DNA from: Clostridia bacterium
GTDB taxonomy: Bacteria; Bacillota; Clostridia; Christensenellales; CAG-138
Direction: 5' to 3'
NCBI GenBank assembly: GCA_045592165.1
Contig: JAZNUG010000077.1
Location: 1 to 36,280 of the forward strand
DNA length: 36,280 bases
Positions 13,083 through 20,361 of this stretch are shown here, in pieces. Numbering within the stretch: position 1 is the stretch's first letter; each line of letters begins with the position of its first letter. The translations under genes were made by a program, and so were the position numbers. The notes below the pieces were generated by a model. It saw nothing but the letters and a program-made list of their open reading frames with translations. It was not told where the DNA came from and searched no databases.

Positions 13083-14156
13083 ATGAGAAAAGACATTGTG
13101 AAAACATTAAAGAGAATAAAACATTTTCGGGTGGAAGTCCTGCCTATGGTGTATACCATACTTATTATGACAGTCGCCACTCTGATTAGTTTTGTTCTGC
13201 ATAAATTTTTTATCATGAACAATAATGTATCCATGATATATGCTTTAGCGGTAGTAGTGGTGGCCTGCGTTGTGCCCAATTATTTTTACGGCGTTATTGC
13301 CTCCCTCATAAGTGTAATAGGCGTTAACTATTTCTTTACAGCTCCTTTCTGGGCTCTCAATTTCACCATGACCGGGTATCCTATAACATTCCTTATAATG
13401 TTGATTACTTCCATAATTACCAACACTCTTGTTATAGGTTACAGAGAGCGTCATAAGGCGGTTGTGGAAGCGGATAAGGAAAAGCTCAGAGGCAACCTGC
13501 TCAGGGCTATTTCTCATGATCTGCGTACTCCGCTTACCACCATTTCCGGATCCAGCGCCGCCCTTCTTGAGGATCATGGCAGAATAAGCAGCGAGGACAG
13601 CAAAGCTCTCCTTACCGATATCCACGATAATGCCCAGTGGCTTATCCGCATGGTGGAAAACCTCCTGTCTGTAACCCGCATGCAAAGCGGTGTATCCGCT
13701 GTAAAGAAAGTGCCCGAGCTTGCGGAAGAGGTAGTGGCCAATGCGGTATCTCAGGTGCGCAAGCGCTTCCCCGGAAGGAGCATCTCCATTGCCGTGGAGG
13801 ATGATCCGCGCGATGTGCCGATGGACGGTACACTGATAGTTCAGGTTATAATCAACCTCATCGAAAACGCCATATTCCACAGCGGCAGTATGGATATCAT
13901 ACATGTATCCGCCAGCATAGGGGAAACAGAGGCGCTGTTCAATGTAAGGGATCATGGCTGCGGCGTGGATATTCAGCGTATAGAAAAACTTATAGCAGGA
14001 CATATAGACTCTGCCAATACAGGGGACAGTTCCAGAGGTATGGGCATAGGCCTTTCTCTGTGCTCCGCAATAATAAAAGCCCATGGAGGAAGGTTCTGGG
14101 CCTGTAACGGGGAGGACGGAGGAGCGGTGTTCAGCTTTGCGCTGCCGTTGGAGTGA
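13083..14156 (+). CDS. Short KdpD-like sensor histidine kinase (4-TM DUF4118-type domain, HisKA, HATPase)
   Basis: Four TM helices with NYFFTAP, LLRAISHDLRTPL, NLIENA, DHGCG, GMGIGLSLC. Lacks the KdpD N-terminal, Usp and GAF regions. Confidence 0.88.
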   Translation: MRKDIVKTLKRIKHFRVEVLPMVYTILIMTVATLISFVLHKFFIMNNNVSMIYALAVVVVACVVPNYFYGVIASLISVIGVNYFFTAPFWALNFTMTGYPITFLIMLITSIITNTLVIGYRERHKAVVEADKEKLRGNLLRAISHDLRTPLTTISGSSAALLEDHGRISSEDSKALLTDIHDNAQWLIRMVENLLSVTRMQSGVSAVKKVPELAEEVVANAVSQVRKRFPGRSISIAVEDDPRDVPMDGTLIVQVIINLIENAIFHSGSMDIIHVSASIGETEALFNVRDHGCGVDIQRIEKLIAGHIDSANTGDSSRGMGIGLSLCSAIIKAHGGRFWACNGEDGGAVFSFALPLE

Positions 14157-14186: not shown

Positions 14187-14215
14187 TTGACTCAGGCTTT
14201 ACTGTATGATAAAAT
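14187..14215 (+). promoter_or_regulatory. sigmaA promoter of the pyr operon
   Basis: TTGACT-17 bp-TAAAAT with TATG extension. Predicted +1 at about 14221-14223. Confidence 0.85.
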
Positions 14216-14248
14216 ATCGAAGATTTGAGCCTAAAAGGAGGAAACGCC

Positions 14249-14326
14249 ATGAAGCAGTATACGGCAAACAGAAAAATGCTTGATATCTGCGGCGTGGTAT
14301 TCTCTTCTACGGTATTTATTTTTTAA
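14249..14326 (+). CDS. Putative pyr operon leader peptide, 25 aa (MKQYTANRKMLDICGVVFSSTVFIF)
   Basis: Perfect SD AAGGAGG at 14235-14241, 7 nt before the ATG. The 3' half is U-rich and the stop codon overlaps the terminator stem. Too short for the ORF track. Confidence 0.7.
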   Translation: MKQYTANRKMLDICGVVFSSTVFIF

Positions 14327-14357
14327 ATCTTTCCATTTTATTTGGAAAGATTTTTTT
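14325..14357 (+). terminator. Attenuator terminator upstream of pyrB
   Basis: AAATCTTTCCA-TTTTATT-TGGAAAGATTT, then a T run to 14357. Lies between the promoter and the pyrB SD. Confidence 0.8.
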
Positions 14358-14391
14358 ATAACTTTTATTTGACATGCGAAAGGAGAAACCA

Positions 14392-15321
14392 ATGCTTAAA
14401 GGAAGAAGTATTCTTGAACCCATGGACATGACCGTTGCCGAACTCGAGGAGATTTTCGATCTGGCTGACGCCATTATCGACAACCCCGAAAAGTTTGCCC
14501 ATGCTTGCGACGGCAAGCTGCTGGCCACTCTCTTCTATGAACCCAGCACCCGTACCCGCTTCAGCTTTGAGGCTGCCATGCTGCGTCTGGGCGGCAAGGT
14601 AATCGGCTTCTCCGAGCCCAATTCCAGCTCCGTTGCAAAGGGCGAAAGCATTGCCGATACTATCCGCACCATCGCCTGCTATGCCGATGTTGCCGTAATG
14701 CGTCATCCCAAGGAGGGTGCTCCCCGTATCGCCGCAAACAGCACCGATATGCCGGTTATCAATGCAGGCGACGGCGGTCATCAGCATCCCACCCAGACCC
14801 TTACCGACCTTCTGACCATCCGCCGCCGCAAGGGTGGCTTCACCAACCTTAAGATCGGCCTCTGCGGCGACCTTAAGTTCGGCCGTACCGTACATTCCCT
14901 CATCAAGGCCATGTCCCGCTATGAGGGCGTTGAGTTTATCATGATCTCCCCTGAAGAGCTGCGTATTCCCGAATACGTACGCAAGGGCGTTCTGGAAGCC
15001 AACAACATTCCTTACCGCGAGGTAAAGAAGATGAAGGAAGTTATGCCTGAGCTGGTCGTTCTGTATATGACCCGCGTACAGCGTGAGCGCTTCTTCAATG
15101 AGGAAGATTACATCCGTCTGAAGGACCGCTACATCCTGGATCTCGAGAAGATCGAGAATGCCAAGGAAGACCTGATGATTCTCCATCCCCTGCCCCGCGT
15201 AAACGAGATCGCCGTAGAAGTGGACGATGATCCCCGTGCCCTGTATTTTGAGCAGGCCAAGAACGGTATGTTTGTCCGCATGGCTCTCATCATGAAGCTG
15301 CTGGGTATCGAAGTACAGTAA
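14392..15321 (+). CDS. pyrB: Aspartate carbamoyltransferase catalytic chain
   Basis: [63 protein letters not shown] before ATG 14392. Confidence 0.97.
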
Positions 15322-15335
15322 AGGAGGCATAAACC

Positions 15336-15764
15336 ATGATAGTAAACAGCATTGAAAAGGGCATCGTAATCGACCATATCACTGCAGGCACCGGCCACAG
15401 GATACTGGATTTCCTCAATATCGACACCAAGAACAACACCGTGGCCTTCATCATGAACGCCTACAGCAAGAAGCACGGCCGCAAGGATCTGATCAAGATC
15501 GAAAACGTAACCGACGTTGACCTGACTGTACTGGGCCTGCTGGATCCCACCGCCACCGTAAACGTAATCGAAAACGGTCAGATCGTACGCAAGATCAGCC
15601 TTGAGCTGCCTGAGACCGTTGTGGACGTTATCAAGTGCAAGAACCCCCGCTGCGTTACCAGCGTAGAGCGTAATGCACACCACATCTTCCATCTTATGAA
15701 CGCCGAGACCCACGAGTATCGCTGCGAATACTGCGACGATATCGTAAACATGAAGGGCGAATAA
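15336..15764 (+). CDS. pyrI: Aspartate carbamoyltransferase regulatory chain
   Basis: GIVIDHI, KDLIKIE, ATVNVIENG, and zinc ligands CKNPRC and CEYC. Confidence 0.95.
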   Translation: MIVNSIEKGIVIDHITAGTGHRILDFLNIDTKNNTVAFIMNAYSKKHGRKDLIKIENVTDVDLTVLGLLDPTATVNVIENGQIVRKISLELPETVVDVIKCKNPRCVTSVERNAHHIFHLMNAETHEYRCEYCDDIVNMKGE

Positions 15765-15774
15765 TGTAACTTTC

Positions 15775-15816
15775 GGGCTTGCTTCCCTGGGAAATACCGT
15801 AAAGAGAAGCAAGCCC
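15775..15816 (+). other. Intercistronic stem-loop between pyrI and pyrC
   Basis: 11-bp perfect stem GGGCTTGCTTC/GAAGCAAGCCC, with no proper U-tract. Confidence 0.7.
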
Positions 15817-15842
15817 TTAACCTATACGAAAGGAGCCGGTCA

Positions 15843-17069
15843 ATGAATATTTGCATAGCAGGAGGAAGGCTTGTGGATCCCACCATGGGGCTGGACAAGC
15901 TGGGAGATATTTACTTTAAGGATGGCATTATCGCCGCAATACGTGCAGAAGGCTTTGAACAGGGAAATATCCCCGAGGGTGAAACACGGCGCATAGAGGT
16001 TAACGGAGCCCTTGTTGTGCCCGGCCTCATTGATCTCCATGTGCATTTCAGAGACCCCGGTTTCTGCTATAAGGAAGACATGACCACGGGCTGTGCATCT
16101 GCAGCGGCAGGCGGCTTTACCACAGTATGCATGATGCCCAACCTTAAGCCCATAACCGATACCCCGGAGCTTGTGGCAGAGCTTGCCAAGCGTTCTGAGG
16201 GCATCCGTGCCCTGCCTGTCGGCTCAATCACCATGGGCCAGAAGGGCGTGGAAATAACCGATGCAGCCGGAATGAAGGCGTCGGGCGCCTGCGCGATCAG
16301 CGAAGACGGACGCTCTGTAATGGATGCGGCTGTGATGTACAGGGCAATGGAAGCGGCGGCAAAGGCGGATATGCCTGTGTTTGACCATACCGAGGACGAT
16401 TCTCTTGCAGGAACAGCAGCAGGTGAGGCTGTTATCGCCGTAAGGGATATGCTTTTTGCAAAGGAAACCGGATGCAGGCTGCATCTTTGCCATATCAGCT
16501 GCGGGCTGTGCCTGGATGCCATAAGGGCGGCAAAGGCAAACGGCCTTGATGTTACCTCCGAAACAGGCCCCCATTACTTTGTGTTTGATAAATCCCGCGC
16601 TACCCACGGTCACTTTAAAATGAACCCTCCCCTCAGAACCAGGGAAGATGTTGCGGCTGTAATAGAGGCTATCAAGGACGGCACCCTTGATGTTATCGCC
16701 ACAGATCATGCCCCCCACAGCGCCGAAGAAAAACTTTGCGGCTATGATAAGGCAATGAATGGCATAATCGGCCTTGAAACCTCCTTCCCGGTAAGCTATA
16801 CTGCCCTTGTAAGGGGTGGTCATATAGACCTTGATAAGCTTATCCGCCTTATGAGCTGCAATGCTGCTGCTATCCTTCGGGATGACATGAGGGGCACCCT
16901 TAAAGTGGGCGCTGCGGCAGATGCAGCGGTGTTTGATATCGACACTCCTTACGTTATAAATCCTGCCGCATTTAAGTCAAAGGGACGCAATACTCCCTTT
17001 GAAGGTATGGAAGTATACGGCAGGACGCTGCTTACCATTTGCGGCGGCAATATAGTTTACATGGCATAA
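15843..17069 (+). CDS. pyrC: Dihydroorotase (class I)
   Basis: PGLIDLHVHFRDPG, GGFTT, MPN, KMNPPLR, ATDHAPH, SKGRNTPF. Confidence 0.95.
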   Translation: MNICIAGGRLVDPTMGLDKLGDIYFKDGIIAAIRAEGFEQGNIPEGETRRIEVNGALVVPGLIDLHVHFRDPGFCYKEDMTTGCASAAAGGFTTVCMMPNLKPITDTPELVAELAKRSEGIRALPVGSITMGQKGVEITDAAGMKASGACAISEDGRSVMDAAVMYRAMEAAAKADMPVFDHTEDDSLAGTAAGEAVIAVRDMLFAKETGCRLHLCHISCGLCLDAIRAAKANGLDVTSETGPHYFVFDKSRATHGHFKMNPPLRTREDVAAVIEAIKDGTLDVIATDHAPHSAEEKLCGYDKAMNGIIGLETSFPVSYTALVRGGHIDLDKLIRLMSCNAAAILRDDMRGTLKVGAAADAAVFDIDTPYVINPAAFKSKGRNTPFEGMEVYGRTLLTICGGNIVYMA

Positions 17070-17090
17070 ATACAGAAAGGAACCGCAGAC

Positions 17091-17996
17091 ATGATAGACA
17101 TTCTTATCAACAGAATCGACGAGCTGAACAACCCCACCGTTGTGGGTCTTGACCCCACTCTGGAAATGATCCCCGGCTACCTCAAGGAGGCTAAGTTTGC
17201 CGAGTTCGGCAAGACCCCCCAGGCCGTTGCGGAGATGTTTGTGGAGTTCAACAGGCAGATTATGCTTGCGGTGCAGGGCATAGTTCCTGCCGTAAAGCCC
17301 CAGGTTGCCTTCTATGAGCGCTATGGCATCCATGGTCTCATGGCATACGAAAGAACCTGCAGCCTTGCAAAGAAAATGGGTTTTATCGTGATTGGCGATA
17401 TTAAGCGCGGAGATATCGGCTCCACTGCTGCAGCCTATGCGGCACATATCGGCGGCACCGAAATCGAGGGCGAAAAGTATGACCTGTGGCATGAGGATTT
17501 CATAACTGTAAACCCCTACCTGGGTGTGGACGGAATCAAGCCCTTTGTGGATGCCTGCAATGCCAATGACAAGGGCATATTCGTGCTGGTTAAGACCAGC
17601 AATCCCTCCAGCAGCCAGCTTCAGGATAAGCTGGTGGACGGCGTACCCGTATATCTTCACGTTGCAGCTCTTGTTGACGAATGGGGCCGCGATGCAATGG
17701 GAGAAAAGGGTTACAGCAAGGTATGCGCAGTTGTCGGTGCAACTCATCGTGAGCAGGGCGCAAGGGTGCGTCAGGCTCTGCCCAATACATTCTTCCTCGT
17801 GCCCGGCTACGGCGCACAGGGCGGCACCGCTGAGGATATCCGCGGCTTCTTTGATGCTGAGCGCCGCGGCTGCATAGTCAATTCCTCCCGCGGCATTATC
17901 GCTGCCTATAAGAAAAACGAAAAGTATGGCGAAAAGGACTTTGCCGATGCTGCACGTGATGCCGCAATCGCCATGCAGAAGGATATCATGGGATGA
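17091..17996 (+). CDS. pyrF: Orotidine-5'-phosphate decarboxylase (long type)
   Basis: VGLDP, VKPQVAFYE, DIKRGDIGST, LVKTSNP, VVGAT, LVPGYGAQGG, NSSRGI. Confidence 0.96.
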   Translation: MIDILINRIDELNNPTVVGLDPTLEMIPGYLKEAKFAEFGKTPQAVAEMFVEFNRQIMLAVQGIVPAVKPQVAFYERYGIHGLMAYERTCSLAKKMGFIVIGDIKRGDIGSTAAAYAAHIGGTEIEGEKYDLWHEDFITVNPYLGVDGIKPFVDACNANDKGIFVLVKTSNPSSSQLQDKLVDGVPVYLHVAALVDEWGRDAMGEKGYSKVCAVVGATHREQGARVRQALPNTFFLVPGYGAQGGTAEDIRGFFDAERRGCIVNSSRGIIAAYKKNEKYGEKDFADAARDAAIAMQKDIMG

Positions 17997-18751
17997 AGAA
18001 GATATCTGAAGCAATCATAAAGAAAAATATGCTCATAGCTCCGGATATTTACAGGATGGAGCTGGAATTGGCCCAGGATGTGAATGCTCTTCCCGGCCAG
18101 TTTGTTAACGTATATCTGGATGACGGTGCACATCTTTTGCCCCGTCCCATAAGCATCTGCCGCGCAGAGGGAAATAACCTTACTTTGGTATACCGTGCGG
18201 TTGGCGCCGGTACAAAGATAATGGCCGGCCTTACCGAGGGTGACACCCTCCGTGTATCCGATCCTCTTGGCAATGGATTTACACTGCCTGAGAGCGGCAC
18301 TGTGCTGGTAGTGGGCGGCGGTGTCGGCGTGCCCCCAATGCTGGGCACCGCCATTGCCGCAAAGGCCCGGGGCCTTAAGGTTATGGCGGCCGTGGGCTAT
18401 CGCAGCGAGCTTTTCCTTAATGAAGAGTTTGAGCAGACGGCAGAGCTTCTCATTGCCACCGATGACGGCAGCGCAGGCTATCATGGAACAGTTGTGGATA
18501 TGCTGCGCGGATCTGATATTCCTGCTGATACTACTGTACTTTCCTGCGGCCCCAAGCCCATGCTTAAGGCGCTGGTTGAGTATTGTCAGGAAGCAGGTTT
18601 CCCCGTTCAGGTTTCCCTTGAGGAGCGCATGGGCTGCGGCTTTGGCGCATGCGTAGGCTGTGTATGCAAGCTGAACCAGAACGGCAGCGTAGTTCAGAAG
18701 CGGGTCTGCAAGGACGGCCCCGTATTCAATGGCAGCGAGGTGATATTCTGA
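17993..18751 (+). CDS. pyrK: Dihydroorotate dehydrogenase electron-transfer subunit
   Basis: PGQFV, RPISI, GGGVGVPP, CGPKPM, ERMGCGFGACVGC, CKDGPVF. Confidence 0.95.
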   Translation: MKKISEAIIKKNMLIAPDIYRMELELAQDVNALPGQFVNVYLDDGAHLLPRPISICRAEGNNLTLVYRAVGAGTKIMAGLTEGDTLRVSDPLGNGFTLPESGTVLVVGGGVGVPPMLGTAIAAKARGLKVMAAVGYRSELFLNEEFEQTAELLIATDDGSAGYHGTVVDMLRGSDIPADTTVLSCGPKPMLKALVEYCQEAGFPVQVSLEERMGCGFGACVGCVCKLNQNGSVVQKRVCKDGPVFNGSEVIF

Positions 18752-19662
18752 TGAGCAATGTGGATCTTTCTGTAAACTTTGCAGGTCTTCAGATGAAGAA
18801 CCCCGTTACTACCGCCAGCGGTACATTTGCTCCCCGTGAGTGCGGCGAGTTTTATGATATTGCCCGCCTCGGAGCAGTAATAACCAAGGGTGTGGCGGCA
18901 GAACCATGGCAGGGCAATCCCACTCCCCGTATAGCGGAAGCCTACGGAGGAATGCTCAATGCCGTTGGCCTTCAGAATCCCGGTGCAGAGGAATATATTA
19001 AAAAAGACCTTGCTTACCTTAAGGATTTTGACGTGCCCGTAATCGCCAATCTTGCCGGTCACAGCATAGAAGAATACTGTGCGGTAACCGAGATGCTCAA
19101 CGATACCGACGTTGCCATGTATGAGCTGAATATATCCTGCCCCAATGTTAAGTTGGGCGGCATAGGCTTTGGCACAGACCCCAAAATGGCAGCAGAAGTT
19201 ACCGAGGCGGTTAAAAAGGTTTCCAAGAAACCCCTCATAGTAAAGCTTACCCCCAACGTCACCGATATTACCGCCATTGCAAAGGCAGTGGAGAGCGCAG
19301 GCGCAGATGCGGTGTCTCTGATAAACACCCTGCTTGGTATGCGCATTGACCTTCGCACAAAGCGTCCCCTCCTTGCAAACGGCACAGGCGGCTTCTCCGG
19401 CCCCGCAGTCAAGCCTGTGGCAATTCGCATGGTATATCAGGTGCGCAGAGCCATAAGCCTGCCCATACTGGGCCTTGGCGGCATTATGACCGGTGAGGAT
19501 GCGGCGGAGTTTCTTATGGCAGGTGCAGATGCGGTTGCCGTTGGCACAGCAGCCCTTGTTAACCCCACTGCTCCCGTGGACGTGGTGGAGGGCCTGAGGG
19601 CATTTATGGAAAGAGAAGGCTATCAGAATATCGCGGCGCTCAAGGCCGCATTCAAGGGATAA
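18751..19662 (+). CDS. pyrD: Dihydroorotate dehydrogenase B catalytic subunit
   Basis: KNPVTTASGT, GNPTPR, NAVGLQNPG, ELNISCPN, KLTPN, GGFSGPAVKP. TGATG overlap with pyrK. Confidence 0.96.
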   Translation: MSNVDLSVNFAGLQMKNPVTTASGTFAPRECGEFYDIARLGAVITKGVAAEPWQGNPTPRIAEAYGGMLNAVGLQNPGAEEYIKKDLAYLKDFDVPVIANLAGHSIEEYCAVTEMLNDTDVAMYELNISCPNVKLGGIGFGTDPKMAAEVTEAVKKVSKKPLIVKLTPNVTDITAIAKAVESAGADAVSLINTLLGMRIDLRTKRPLLANGTGGFSGPAVKPVAIRMVYQVRRAISLPILGLGGIMTGEDAAEFLMAGADAVAVGTAALVNPTAPVDVVEGLRAFMEREGYQNIAALKAAFKG

Positions 19663-19677
19663 CAAAGGAGGAACAAC

Positions 19678-20361
19678 ATGAGCTACAAGTCTGAATTCAT
19701 TACCTTCATGGCCCGCGCAGGCGTTTTGACCTTTGGCGATTTTACCACCAAGAGCGGCCGCAAGACCCCTTATTTTATCAATACCGGCAACTATAAGACC
19801 GGCGGACAGATTGCCCGTCTGGGCGAGTTCTATGCCGCCTGCATCGAAGAGCACATCAAGGCCGGCGAGCTGCCTGAGGATATCACAGCTCTGTTTGGAC
19901 CTGCATACAAGGGTATTCCCCTTGCAGTATCCGCTGCTGCTGCCCTTTATAAGGGCGGACGTGACCTGAACTACTGCTTTAACCGCAAGGAAGTCAAGGA
20001 TCACGGCGAAGGCGGCTCCATGGTAGGCTACAAGCCCAAGGATGGCGACAAGCTGCTGATAATCGAGGACGTTATCACTGCAGGTACTGCTGTTCGTGAA
20101 ACCCTGCCCGTACTGCAGGCAGCGGCAAAGGTAGAGGTGCCCGGCCTCATCATCTCTGTTGACCGCATGGAGCGCGGTCAGGGCGAGCTTACCGCCATTC
20201 AGGAGATAAAGCGGGATTTCGGCATCACCACTTTCCCCATCGTTACCGTTGTGGACATCCTTGAGACCCTCAGCGGCAAGGAAGTTGACGGCAAGGTGCT
20301 TATCGATGCTGACATCCGCCGCAGGATGGAGCAGTACATGGCAGATTACTGTGTAAAATAA
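19678..20361 (+). CDS. pyrE: Orotate phosphoribosyltransferase
   Basis: FGDFTTKSGR, FGPAYKGIPL, NRKEVKDHGEGG, IIEDVITAGT. SD AAGGAGG. Confidence 0.96.
   Translation: MSYKSEFITFMARAGVLTFGDFTTKSGRKTPYFINTGNYKTGGQIARLGEFYAACIEEHIKAGELPEDITALFGPAYKGIPLAVSAAAALYKGGRDLNYCFNRKEVKDHGEGGSMVGYKPKDGDKLLIIEDVITAGTAVRETLPVLQAAAKVEVPGLIISVDRMERGQGELTAIQEIKRDFGITTFPIVTVVDILETLSGKEVDGKVLIDADIRRRMEQYMADYCVK

Follow-up and report, generated by a model that had tools for sequence, protein, structure and literature searches.

The window analyzed here, that is, the whole stretch of 36,280 nucleotides (nt) from a Clostridia bacterium (24.8% T and 50.4% GC), contains an operon for pyrimidine biosynthesis, pyrBICFKDE. 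Directly in front of it, within positions 14187 to 14391, lies a leader in which a sigma-70-type promoter, a strong ribosome-binding site, an open reading frame (ORF) of 25 codons with a U-rich end, and an intrinsic terminator follow one another. We propose that this leader is probably an attenuator that works without the regulatory protein PyrR and in which a ribosome translating the short ORF would link transcription of the operon to the supply of uridine triphosphate (UTP). The features of the leader and the operon are the following, all of them on the forward (+) strand.

14187-14215, +, sigma-70-type promoter: -35 TTGACT at 14187-14192, a 17-nt spacer, and the extended -10 TGATAAAAT with its hexamer TAAAAT at 14210-14215
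14222-14227, +, predicted initially transcribed region GATTTG: G14222 is the seventh base past the -10 and is followed by three T; the transcription start is a prediction
14235-14241, +, Shine-Dalgarno sequence AAGGAGG of the leader ORF, with a 7-nt spacer to the ATG
14236-14296, +, predicted 5' hairpin, in which the ribosome-binding site (14236-14242) is paired to 14290-14296 and GCCAUG (14246-14251) to 14283-14288
14249-14326, +, leader ORF: ATG at 14249, 25 codons, TAA at 14324-14326
14298-14324, +, U-rich tract with 17 T in 27 nt: its 3' end is TATTTATTTTTT at 14313-14324, with two matches to TTNTTT
14325-14357, +, intrinsic terminator with an 11-bp stem, a loop of 7 nt, and 7 T in a row, of which 3 belong to the stem
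14358-14391, +, 34-nt spacer from the terminator to pyrB, with the pyrB Shine-Dalgarno sequence AAGGAG at 14380-14385
14392-20361, +, controlled operon pyrB-I-C-F-K-D-E, assigned by NCBIfam matches
14392-15321, +, pyrB; 15336-15764, +, pyrI; 15843-17069, +, pyrC; 17091-17996, +, pyrF
17993-18751, +, pyrK; pyrD, +, ending at 19662; 19678-20361, +, pyrE

The promoter agrees with the consensus at 10 of 12 positions in our promoter scan, and the TG extension is present. The two halves of the leader ORF differ in composition, the first being U-poor (8 T in 38 nt) and the second U-rich (19 T in 40 nt); over the leader, there are 6 T in the 50 nt of 14231-14280 versus 17 in the 27 nt of 14298-14324. 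The TAA of the ORF shares its last two bases with the start of the 5' arm of the terminator, whose stem arms (14325-14335 and 14343-14353) include three G-C pairs and whose T run covers 14351-14357, with a predicted energy of -11.7 kcal/mol. The last T of this run lies 34 nt upstream of the pyrB ATG at 14392. An earlier note on this DNA had described the promoter, the Shine-Dalgarno sequence, the ORF, the terminator, and the 34-nt gap, and we found every element where it had placed them, with exactly the T counts that it had given for the early leader and the end of the ORF. Among the genes of the operon, pyrB, pyrI, pyrF, pyrD, and pyrE reach the curated NCBIfam cut-offs, and pyrC and pyrK are strong matches. 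The gene on the 5' side of the leader, which stops at 14156, encodes a sensor histidine kinase, and no terminator lies between it and 14325.

Promoter-like or terminator-like matches, taken singly, are no commoner here than in shuffled sequence, as an 8-kb region had 9 promoters versus 9.2 expected from shuffles and 9 terminators versus 7.8; it is the combination that is rare. On both strands of the whole 1.84-Mb assembly there are 893 terminator-like sites, for each of which we looked for a ribosome-binding site and an ATG-started ORF of 10 to 60 codons with its stop between 15 nt before the start of the hairpin and 40 nt after its end, together with a gene of at least 100 amino acids within 160 nt. 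A single site of the 893 combines all of this, and it is the pyrB leader of the window; as the criteria were modeled on this leader, one in 893 should be read as a base rate rather than as the result of a formal test. The regions upstream of the uracil permease gene and of upp in the same genome had no ORF with a terminator.

Pyrimidine operons in Firmicutes are, in the textbook view, controlled by PyrR, while leader-peptide, UTP-sensitive attenuation belongs to enteric bacteria. We did not find PyrR in the genome of the window (best match, 38.7 bits versus a cut-off of 140, in an assembly that is 87.9% complete), and the best match is a hypoxanthine phosphoribosyltransferase (HGPRTase), which scores 208.8 bits against TIGR01203. 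The Rfam model of the PyrR site (RF00515) gives the leader 19.9 bits versus a gathering score of 54, a match that rests on the terminator part, and has no match in a scan of the whole genome. The model is of limited sensitivity, as at the gathering score it caught only one of three PyrR leaders visible by eye, so the absence of the RNA site rests on the absent motif and the absent protein jointly. The earlier note had seen no PyrR loop in the leader and no pyrR in the operon, and both statements agree with these searches, the second now for the genome as assembled. Four sister species that have the same leader, with assemblies 86 to 98% complete, contain no match to the PyrR model above 40 bits. 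More broadly, a leader ORF, strict or weak as defined below, occurs in 15 genomes, 14 of which are without a PyrR-like match above 45 bits, and PyrR-like matches of 88 to 143 bits occur in 17 of the 41 related genomes that we compared.

Within the genus of the window we compared five species, whose pyrB genes are 91 to 100% identical. The -35, the TG, and the -10 are kept in all five, with a promoter spacer that varies, and so is a start region at pyrB that reads GATTTG or AGTTTG. The Shine-Dalgarno sequence of the leader is likewise kept in all five, as GGAGG or GGGAGG. The leader ATG, the T run, and the terminator are invariant or nearly so, while much of the ORF interior varies; within it, a block ATC-N-GCGG is invariant in the five species. 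Base changes in the terminator stem, where there are any, are on one side only. The leader frame stays open in all five species for 25 to 37 codons, with an in-frame 3-nt deletion in one of them, and indel frameshifts place the stop in the 5' arm in three species versus just past the U run in the other two (L005 and L006). These two ORFs, of 36 to 37 codons, cross the entire hairpin and end with a TAA in the spacer just past the U run. The earlier note had expected the distance from stop to hairpin to be conserved, with a ribosome sitting at the stop codon, and this is not what relatives keep: in the wider comparison below, the stop ranges from -13 to +59 relative to the hairpin. Going by these alignments, the conserved trait appears to be that translation reaches the hairpin, and not the position of the stop. 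The expectations for relatives otherwise mostly held: the ribosome-binding site and the ATG are retained, as is a frame open up to the terminator, and the peptide is not. We also observed that the 34-nt spacer at 14358-14391 is nearly invariant in the five species, which exceeds what a ribosome-binding site alone would require.

The genus is split with respect to the two types of regulation. The PyrR-less species (G000, which is the window's genome, G002, G003, G005, and G008) have the pyrBI operon with the leader, and the PyrR-positive species (G001, G004, G006, and G007) have pyrR directly 5' of the uracil permease gene. A true pyrB was not found in these last four species, where the best matches are 114 to 135 bits versus a cut-off of 237. 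This distribution suggests that the whole operon was gained or lost together with its leader. The window's pyrB shares 81% identity with its Bacilliculturomica counterpart versus 45 to 64% with those of other genera of its own family, which hints that operon and leader moved together.

Beyond the genus, we surveyed 108 pyrB loci, 28 from the 41 related genomes and 80 from named records. A terminator ends 10 to 170 nt before pyrB in 54 of them, comprising 20 loci with a PyrR-type box (by our own heuristic, CCTTTAA or CTTTAAA within 260 nt), 8 with terminators of the upstream gene, and 26 that are neither; these 26 amount to 22 lineages, with the window's genus taken as a single one. A strict leader ORF, defined by a 5-mer Shine-Dalgarno sequence, at least 10 codons, and a stop from 15 nt before the hairpin to 40 nt after its end, is present in 13 of the 26 loci and 9 of the 22 lineages, one of which (L075) is doubtful; besides the window's genus and L075, the lineages are L016, L019, L022, L056, L059, L065, and L089. 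The arrangement recurs in unrelated lineages lacking PyrR, and the labels of the leader-bearing genomes include Oscillospiraceae, Lachnospiraceae, and one Thermotogaceae. Shuffled sequences give between 0 and 0.16 such ORFs per locus, which by our own sum is about 0.7 over the 22 lineages versus the 9 observed. The same definition finds an ORF in only 1 of the 20 PyrR-type leaders and in none of the 8 upstream-gene terminators. Three more loci, L036 (Bacilliculturomica massiliensis Marseille-P3303), L010, and L018, have weaker ribosome-binding sites, with ORFs that end 9 nt (L036), 6 nt (L010), and 3 nt (L018) before the hairpin. An unbiased scan, which took every ATG ORF with a Shine-Dalgarno sequence starting within 220 nt of the hairpin, placed the stops from -13 to +59 of the first base of the hairpin and none earlier, the doubtful L075 (+75) excepted. 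The leader peptides are unrelated between genera, with no shared similarity, and the six that we tested, including the window's, match no Pfam family at E values of up to 10.

The U-rich end of the ORF is a frequent feature of these leaders. T accounts for 43% or more of the 30 nt on the 5' side of the hairpin, with T runs of 4 to 8, in 9 of the 13 leader-ORF loci, and PyrR-type leaders have, for comparison, a median of 38% T and T runs of 3; the U-rich end that the earlier note had predicted for relatives is thus common (9 of 13) and not universal, being missing from the other 4. TTNTTT is the non-template motif at which NusG of Bacillus subtilis promotes pausing, and at tlrB this pause is described as giving time for translation of a leader peptide (PMC12288461). 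By analogy with tlrB, the RNA polymerase would be expected to pause at the TTNTTT tract of the window.

The start region of the pyrB transcript offers a second point at which UTP could act. In the same genome, the promoter of the uracil permease gene (TIGR00801, 304 bits; contig C52 of G000, L129/L034) shares GAAGATTTG with the pyrB promoter, where it lies at 14216-14229, at an equal distance from the -10; in both, the -10 hexamer is followed by 6 nt and then by GATTTG, the start site at pyrB being a prediction. The sequence [G/C]AAGATTTG is found at the permease in all five PyrR-less species of the genus and also in G021, a PyrR-less genome of another genus (L130-L133, L143). Three 9-mer variants of this motif have 44 occurrences across the window's genome, 7 of them with a -10-like hexamer just upstream, and we judged 3 of these 7 to be convincing promoters: those of pyrB, the permease, and a sodium-dependent transporter. 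For UTP-dependent reiterative transcription, three or more T shortly past the start are reported to suffice, and the E. coli pyrBI promoter reads AATTTG (PMC6524683). Judging from these features, the start region common to pyrB and the permease is a candidate UTP-sensitive reiterative-transcription site outside Proteobacteria, and stuttering of the polymerase at GATTTG is likely a second, partly independent UTP-sensitive layer. Neither this start region nor the hairpin over the ribosome-binding site and start codon had been part of the earlier note. Many PyrR-less pyrB promoters of other genera (among them L010, L016, L018, L019, L056, L065, and L089) have a run of A and then T (AAAAAT-like) in place of GATTTG.

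Folding of the whole leader gave -40.7 kcal/mol (z score of -4.6), and none of 200 shuffles was as stable. The minimum-energy and consensus folds consist of two independent hairpins, with no antiterminator that would compete with the terminator. In the predicted 5' hairpin, three pairs are changed on both sides among the five species of the genus, and in 9 of the 13 leaders the ribosome-binding site pairs with a downstream U/C-rich tract in the minimum-energy fold. We considered masking of the ribosome-binding site as a selected feature and set it aside, keeping it as a hypothesis, as it fails to exceed dinucleotide-preserving shuffles in 6 of 9 lineages; the shuffle fractions per locus range from 0.013 to 0.89, and our own Fisher combination over the 9 lineages is about 0.015. 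The 5' hairpin may be a by-product of the U/C-rich tract, a pause hairpin, or a timer that closes the ribosome-binding site. In the last version, the U-rich strand, once made, would shut the ribosome-binding site, and low UTP would widen the period in which a ribosome can load.

We favor the reading that the leader is a PyrR-independent, ribosome-mediated, UTP-linked attenuator of pyrBICFKDE, similar to pyrL by convergence, and we give it a probability of roughly 0.6. Transcription would begin near G14222, and a ribosome would load at the strong ribosome-binding site and translate the 25-codon leader. When UTP is plentiful, the polymerase would clear the leader first, the 11-bp hairpin would fold, and transcription would stop at the U run before pyrB. 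When UTP is scarce, the polymerase would slow down in the U-rich second half of the ORF, in the hairpin, and in the U run, and the ribosome would catch up. A ribosome at the last codons or at the stop would cover the 5' arm (14325-14335) as the 3' arm emerges, so that no hairpin forms and the polymerase continues into pyrB. A ribosome with its A site on a stop codon encloses about 13 to 15 nt of downstream mRNA, and a ribosome at the leader stop would therefore cover the 5' arm. A polymerase at the end of the U run would still hold the 3' arm in the hybrid and in the exit channel, with only the loop between the two machines. A bare terminator would, if anything, be expected to act the wrong way round for a biosynthetic operon, stopping transcription more often when UTP is low, and we infer that the following ribosome is what supplies the right sign. 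As a second layer, the polymerase may stutter on the three T of GATTTG, as at E. coli pyrBI, and the leader attenuator probably works jointly with this stuttering.

The leader peptide pyrL of the E. coli pyrBI operon provides the obvious comparison. As in the window, a promoter is followed by a short translated leader (in the window, a predicted one) and by an intrinsic terminator just before pyrB, and the leader ORF meets or crosses the hairpin, so that a close ribosome can block it; tight coupling across pyrL is described as preventing termination at the pyrBI terminator (PMC5021804). Three T are present in the start region of pyrBI, AATTTG (PMC6524683), and in the predicted one of the window, GATTTG. 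In both cases the first regulated gene is pyrB, followed by pyrI, and the leader is U-rich. PyrL is 44 codons long, versus 25 for the leader of the window, and Pfam includes a family for the PyrBI leader. Unlike PyrL, the peptide of the window has no Pfam match, and the two have no sequence similarity. The stop of pyrL lies beyond the terminator, whereas that of the window overlaps the 5' arm and two sister species read through. The host of the window also belongs to a clostridial lineage without PyrR, and a hairpin is predicted to mask the ribosome-binding site of its leader. By analogy, we would place the leader of the window in the functional class of pyrL by mechanism, and not among the relatives of PyrL by descent.

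Attenuation by PyrR in B. subtilis (RF00515) also acts on a Firmicute pyr operon through a terminator in its 5' leader, and its outcome is the one proposed here, premature termination when pyrimidines are plentiful. Unlike in that system, a PyrR protein was not found in the genome, the leader lacks the binding loop, and its folds offer neither an antiterminator nor an anti-antiterminator; the PyrR-type leaders of our survey mostly lack an ORF of this kind (1 of 20 has it). In the leaders of B. subtilis tlrB and vmlR, a short ORF is translated during a polymerase pause at TTNTTT and the position of the ribosome decides termination, as these leaders are described in PMC12288461 and PMC9226507. 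The two TTNTTT matches just before the hairpin of the window resemble them. They sense antibiotic-stalled ribosomes and control resistance genes, whereas the leader of the window would respond to polymerase speed, and hence UTP, in front of a biosynthetic operon. Leader peptides are described as rare in Firmicutes by Naville and Gautheret (2010), who give only ermC as shown before outside Proteobacteria and Actinobacteria; the histidine leader peptide before hisS and hisZ in bacilli is among the few classical leader-peptide attenuators reported there in Firmicutes, and it senses charged transfer RNA (tRNA) through regulatory codons in a gene family and lineage that differ from the window's (PMC2965389). 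Attenuators of the trp, his, and phe type have an alternative antiterminator hairpin that competes with the terminator, and there is none in the folds of the window. In the pyr operon of Thermus, a translated leader counters a terminator together with PyrR. The Thermus leader depends on PyrR, which was not found in the genome of the window. In our survey, L022 (genome G033) has a leader ORF of 56 codons with a strong ribosome-binding site that reads through the terminator, in a genome that encodes PyrR; it may be a combined leader-peptide and PyrR system, and it might resemble that of Thermus.

An alternative that we regard as unlikely is that the signal is read only at initiation, where high UTP would cause stuttering at GATTTG and the release of short transcripts; the ORF would then add no regulation, and the terminator would either stop part of the transcripts constitutively or insulate the operon from the histidine kinase gene upstream. 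The motif fits the requirement for at least three T (PMC6524683), GAAGATTTG has identical spacing in the pyrB and permease promoters, and the permease keeps it in all five PyrR-less species of the genus as well as in G021. At pyrB, GATTTG or AGTTTG is kept in 5 of 5 species despite a varying promoter spacer. L021 and L041 have a GATTTG-type start region before pyrB with no terminator and no leader ORF, and the kinase gene lacks a terminator of its own before 14325. What this explanation leaves unaccounted for is the recurrence of a strong ribosome-binding site, an ATG, and a frame open up to the hairpin in L016, L019, L056, L059, L065, and L089, the start regions of which are unrelated. In addition, the transcription start is a prediction from sequence, and the motif also occurs in a third promoter, that of a sodium-dependent transporter without an assigned substrate. 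E. coli pyrBI has both layers together, so stuttering at initiation is more likely an added layer than a replacement for the leader. A different possibility, which we consider unlikely, is a structured RNA element read by a protein or a small molecule, with the 5' hairpin as the sensor, the ORF as incidental, and the apparent ribosome-binding site as the purine-rich strand of the hairpin. The z score of -4.6, the three both-side pair changes in the genus, the invariant ATC-N-GCGG block inside the ORF, and the pairing of the ribosome-binding site with the U/C-rich tract in 9 of 13 leaders are consistent with such an element. No sequence or structure is common between genera, however, and in the 16 non-PyrR leaders that we scanned no Rfam family attains its gathering score; the folds show no antiterminator competing with the terminator, and in most loci the pairing of the ribosome-binding site does not exceed that of dinucleotide shuffles. 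It would also leave unexplained that no ORF ends more than 13 nt before the hairpin.

It seems improbable that the translated leader senses translation status instead of UTP, either through charged tRNA for the phenylalanine (Phe), isoleucine (Ile), and leucine codons at its end or through the general rate of elongation. The last codons are indeed rich in Phe, Ile, and valine in the window, L005, L019, L056, and L065, and a U run coding for Phe has been taken as a Phe-sensing upstream ORF (uORF) before aroF in Acholeplasma (PMC8632094). The operon, however, makes pyrimidines and not aromatic or branched-chain amino acids, and stalling on the 5' side of the hairpin would favor termination because no alternative antiterminator is predicted. 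Nor are the codons within the U tract conserved, since the species of the genus read it in different frames. Most improbable of all is that the ORF encodes a functional small hydrophobic peptide or that the arrangement is due to chance. The C terminus of the leader peptide is hydrophobic, but it is altered by frameshift inside the genus, the peptides are unrelated between genera and have no Pfam family, and 9 of 22 lineages compare with about 0.7 expected.

Several observations weigh against the ribosome-mediated attenuator that we favor. B. subtilis is reported to uncouple transcription from translation, and the predicted 5' hairpin hides the leader's own ribosome-binding site and start codon; if it forms, it could limit leader translation or indicate another mechanism. 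The ORF end is not U-rich in L016, L018, L059, and L010. The assembly of the window is 87.9% complete, which leaves the absence of PyrR from this genome alone unproven, and in G033 (locus L022) a leader ORF stands next to a PyrR match of 143 bits. The lineages counted are not fully independent, as one terminator is common to L016, L018, and L019 and the pyrB genes of L036 and L065 are 80 to 81% identical to that of the window, which makes shared ancestry possible. Finally, the device is not general in PyrR-less Clostridia: none of four pyrC-first operons has it, with plain promoters instead, it is missing from the three carA upstream regions in G041, G043, and G044, and L015, L017, L021, and L041 have pyrB promoters without any terminator. 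Taken as a whole, the interpretation of the earlier note is partly supported: it stands as regards the architecture, its conservation, and the failure to find PyrR, is still a proposal as regards UTP sensing and leader translation, and has to be changed as regards a fixed stop-to-hairpin distance and a universal U-rich end.

More tentatively, and as something possible rather than probable, PyrR may have given way independently, in several clostridial lineages and in at least one Thermotogaceae genome, to a UTP sensor that has two layers and needs no protein. The first layer would be stuttering at the start region with three T, common to the promoters of de novo synthesis (pyrB) and of salvage (uracil permease). 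In the second, the U/C-rich end of the ORF would act at once as a polymerase brake, as the anti-Shine-Dalgarno strand that, after being transcribed, shuts the ribosome-binding site of the leader, and as the run-up to the terminator. Low UTP would lengthen the time available for ribosome loading and let the ribosome catch the polymerase. If true, this would be a natural case in Firmicutes of transcription-translation coupling that is conditional on nucleotide supply.

In full-text literature searches, we came across no account of a leader peptide that attenuates transcription ahead of pyrB in Clostridia, and a survey of 26 genomes lists uORF motifs with none for pyrB (PMC8632094). If the attenuator proves real, abundant gut Clostridia (labeled Oscillospiraceae and Lachnospiraceae) and Bacilliculturomica would have reached the enteric solution by convergence, and the leader would offer a Gram-positive model in which a ribosome must catch the RNA polymerase, with a bearing on the debate about coupling in Firmicutes. 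It would also improve the annotation of short ORFs before pyrB and provide a compact, protein-free, pyrimidine-responsive part for the engineering of anaerobes. The GATTTG common to pyrB and the permease suggests reiterative transcription well outside Proteobacteria and Bacillus.

Some further observations concern the window and its genome. As for a promoter between the terminator and pyrB, the sole candidate, a TTGACA 20 nt before the ATG, was rejected, as it leaves no space for a -10 and a ribosome-binding site. A weak match of Rfam ncr1575 in the leader (27.9 bits versus 60) was dismissed as merely terminator-like, and a search of the whole window against Rfam 15 gave no match at the gathering score. 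The large subunit of carbamoyl-phosphate synthase (carB) was not found in this assembly (87.9% complete), where the best match to TIGR01369 is 28 bits. The public RNA data comprised four runs, two from gut metatranscriptomes and two whose kind is uncertain, and covered only small shares of the window; the alignments are Logan contigs of relatives at 90 to 95% identity, which are uninformative on expression, transcript ends, or readthrough. Three of these contigs start at 14347, within the hairpin, likely as an assembly break at the inverted repeat.

Other elements were observed at pyrB loci of the survey. A record labeled Petrotoga sp. has a purine riboswitch aptamer (L038:1335-1437, +; RF00167, 73.9 bits versus a gathering score of 37), which is followed by a terminator and lies directly before pyrB; apparently, an element that senses purines stands here in front of a pyrimidine operon. 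In L048, L058, and L075, labeled Tissierellia and Ezakiella, a promoter and a strong terminator precede pyrB, with neither a PyrR box nor a convincing leader ORF. The start regions of L048 and L058 resemble each other, and the three loci may represent another type of attenuator. The Tissierellia record L048 also carries, on the opposite strand and 5' of the pyrB promoter, a tetrahydrofolate (THF) riboswitch (L048:1180-1269, -; RF01831, 63.7 bits).

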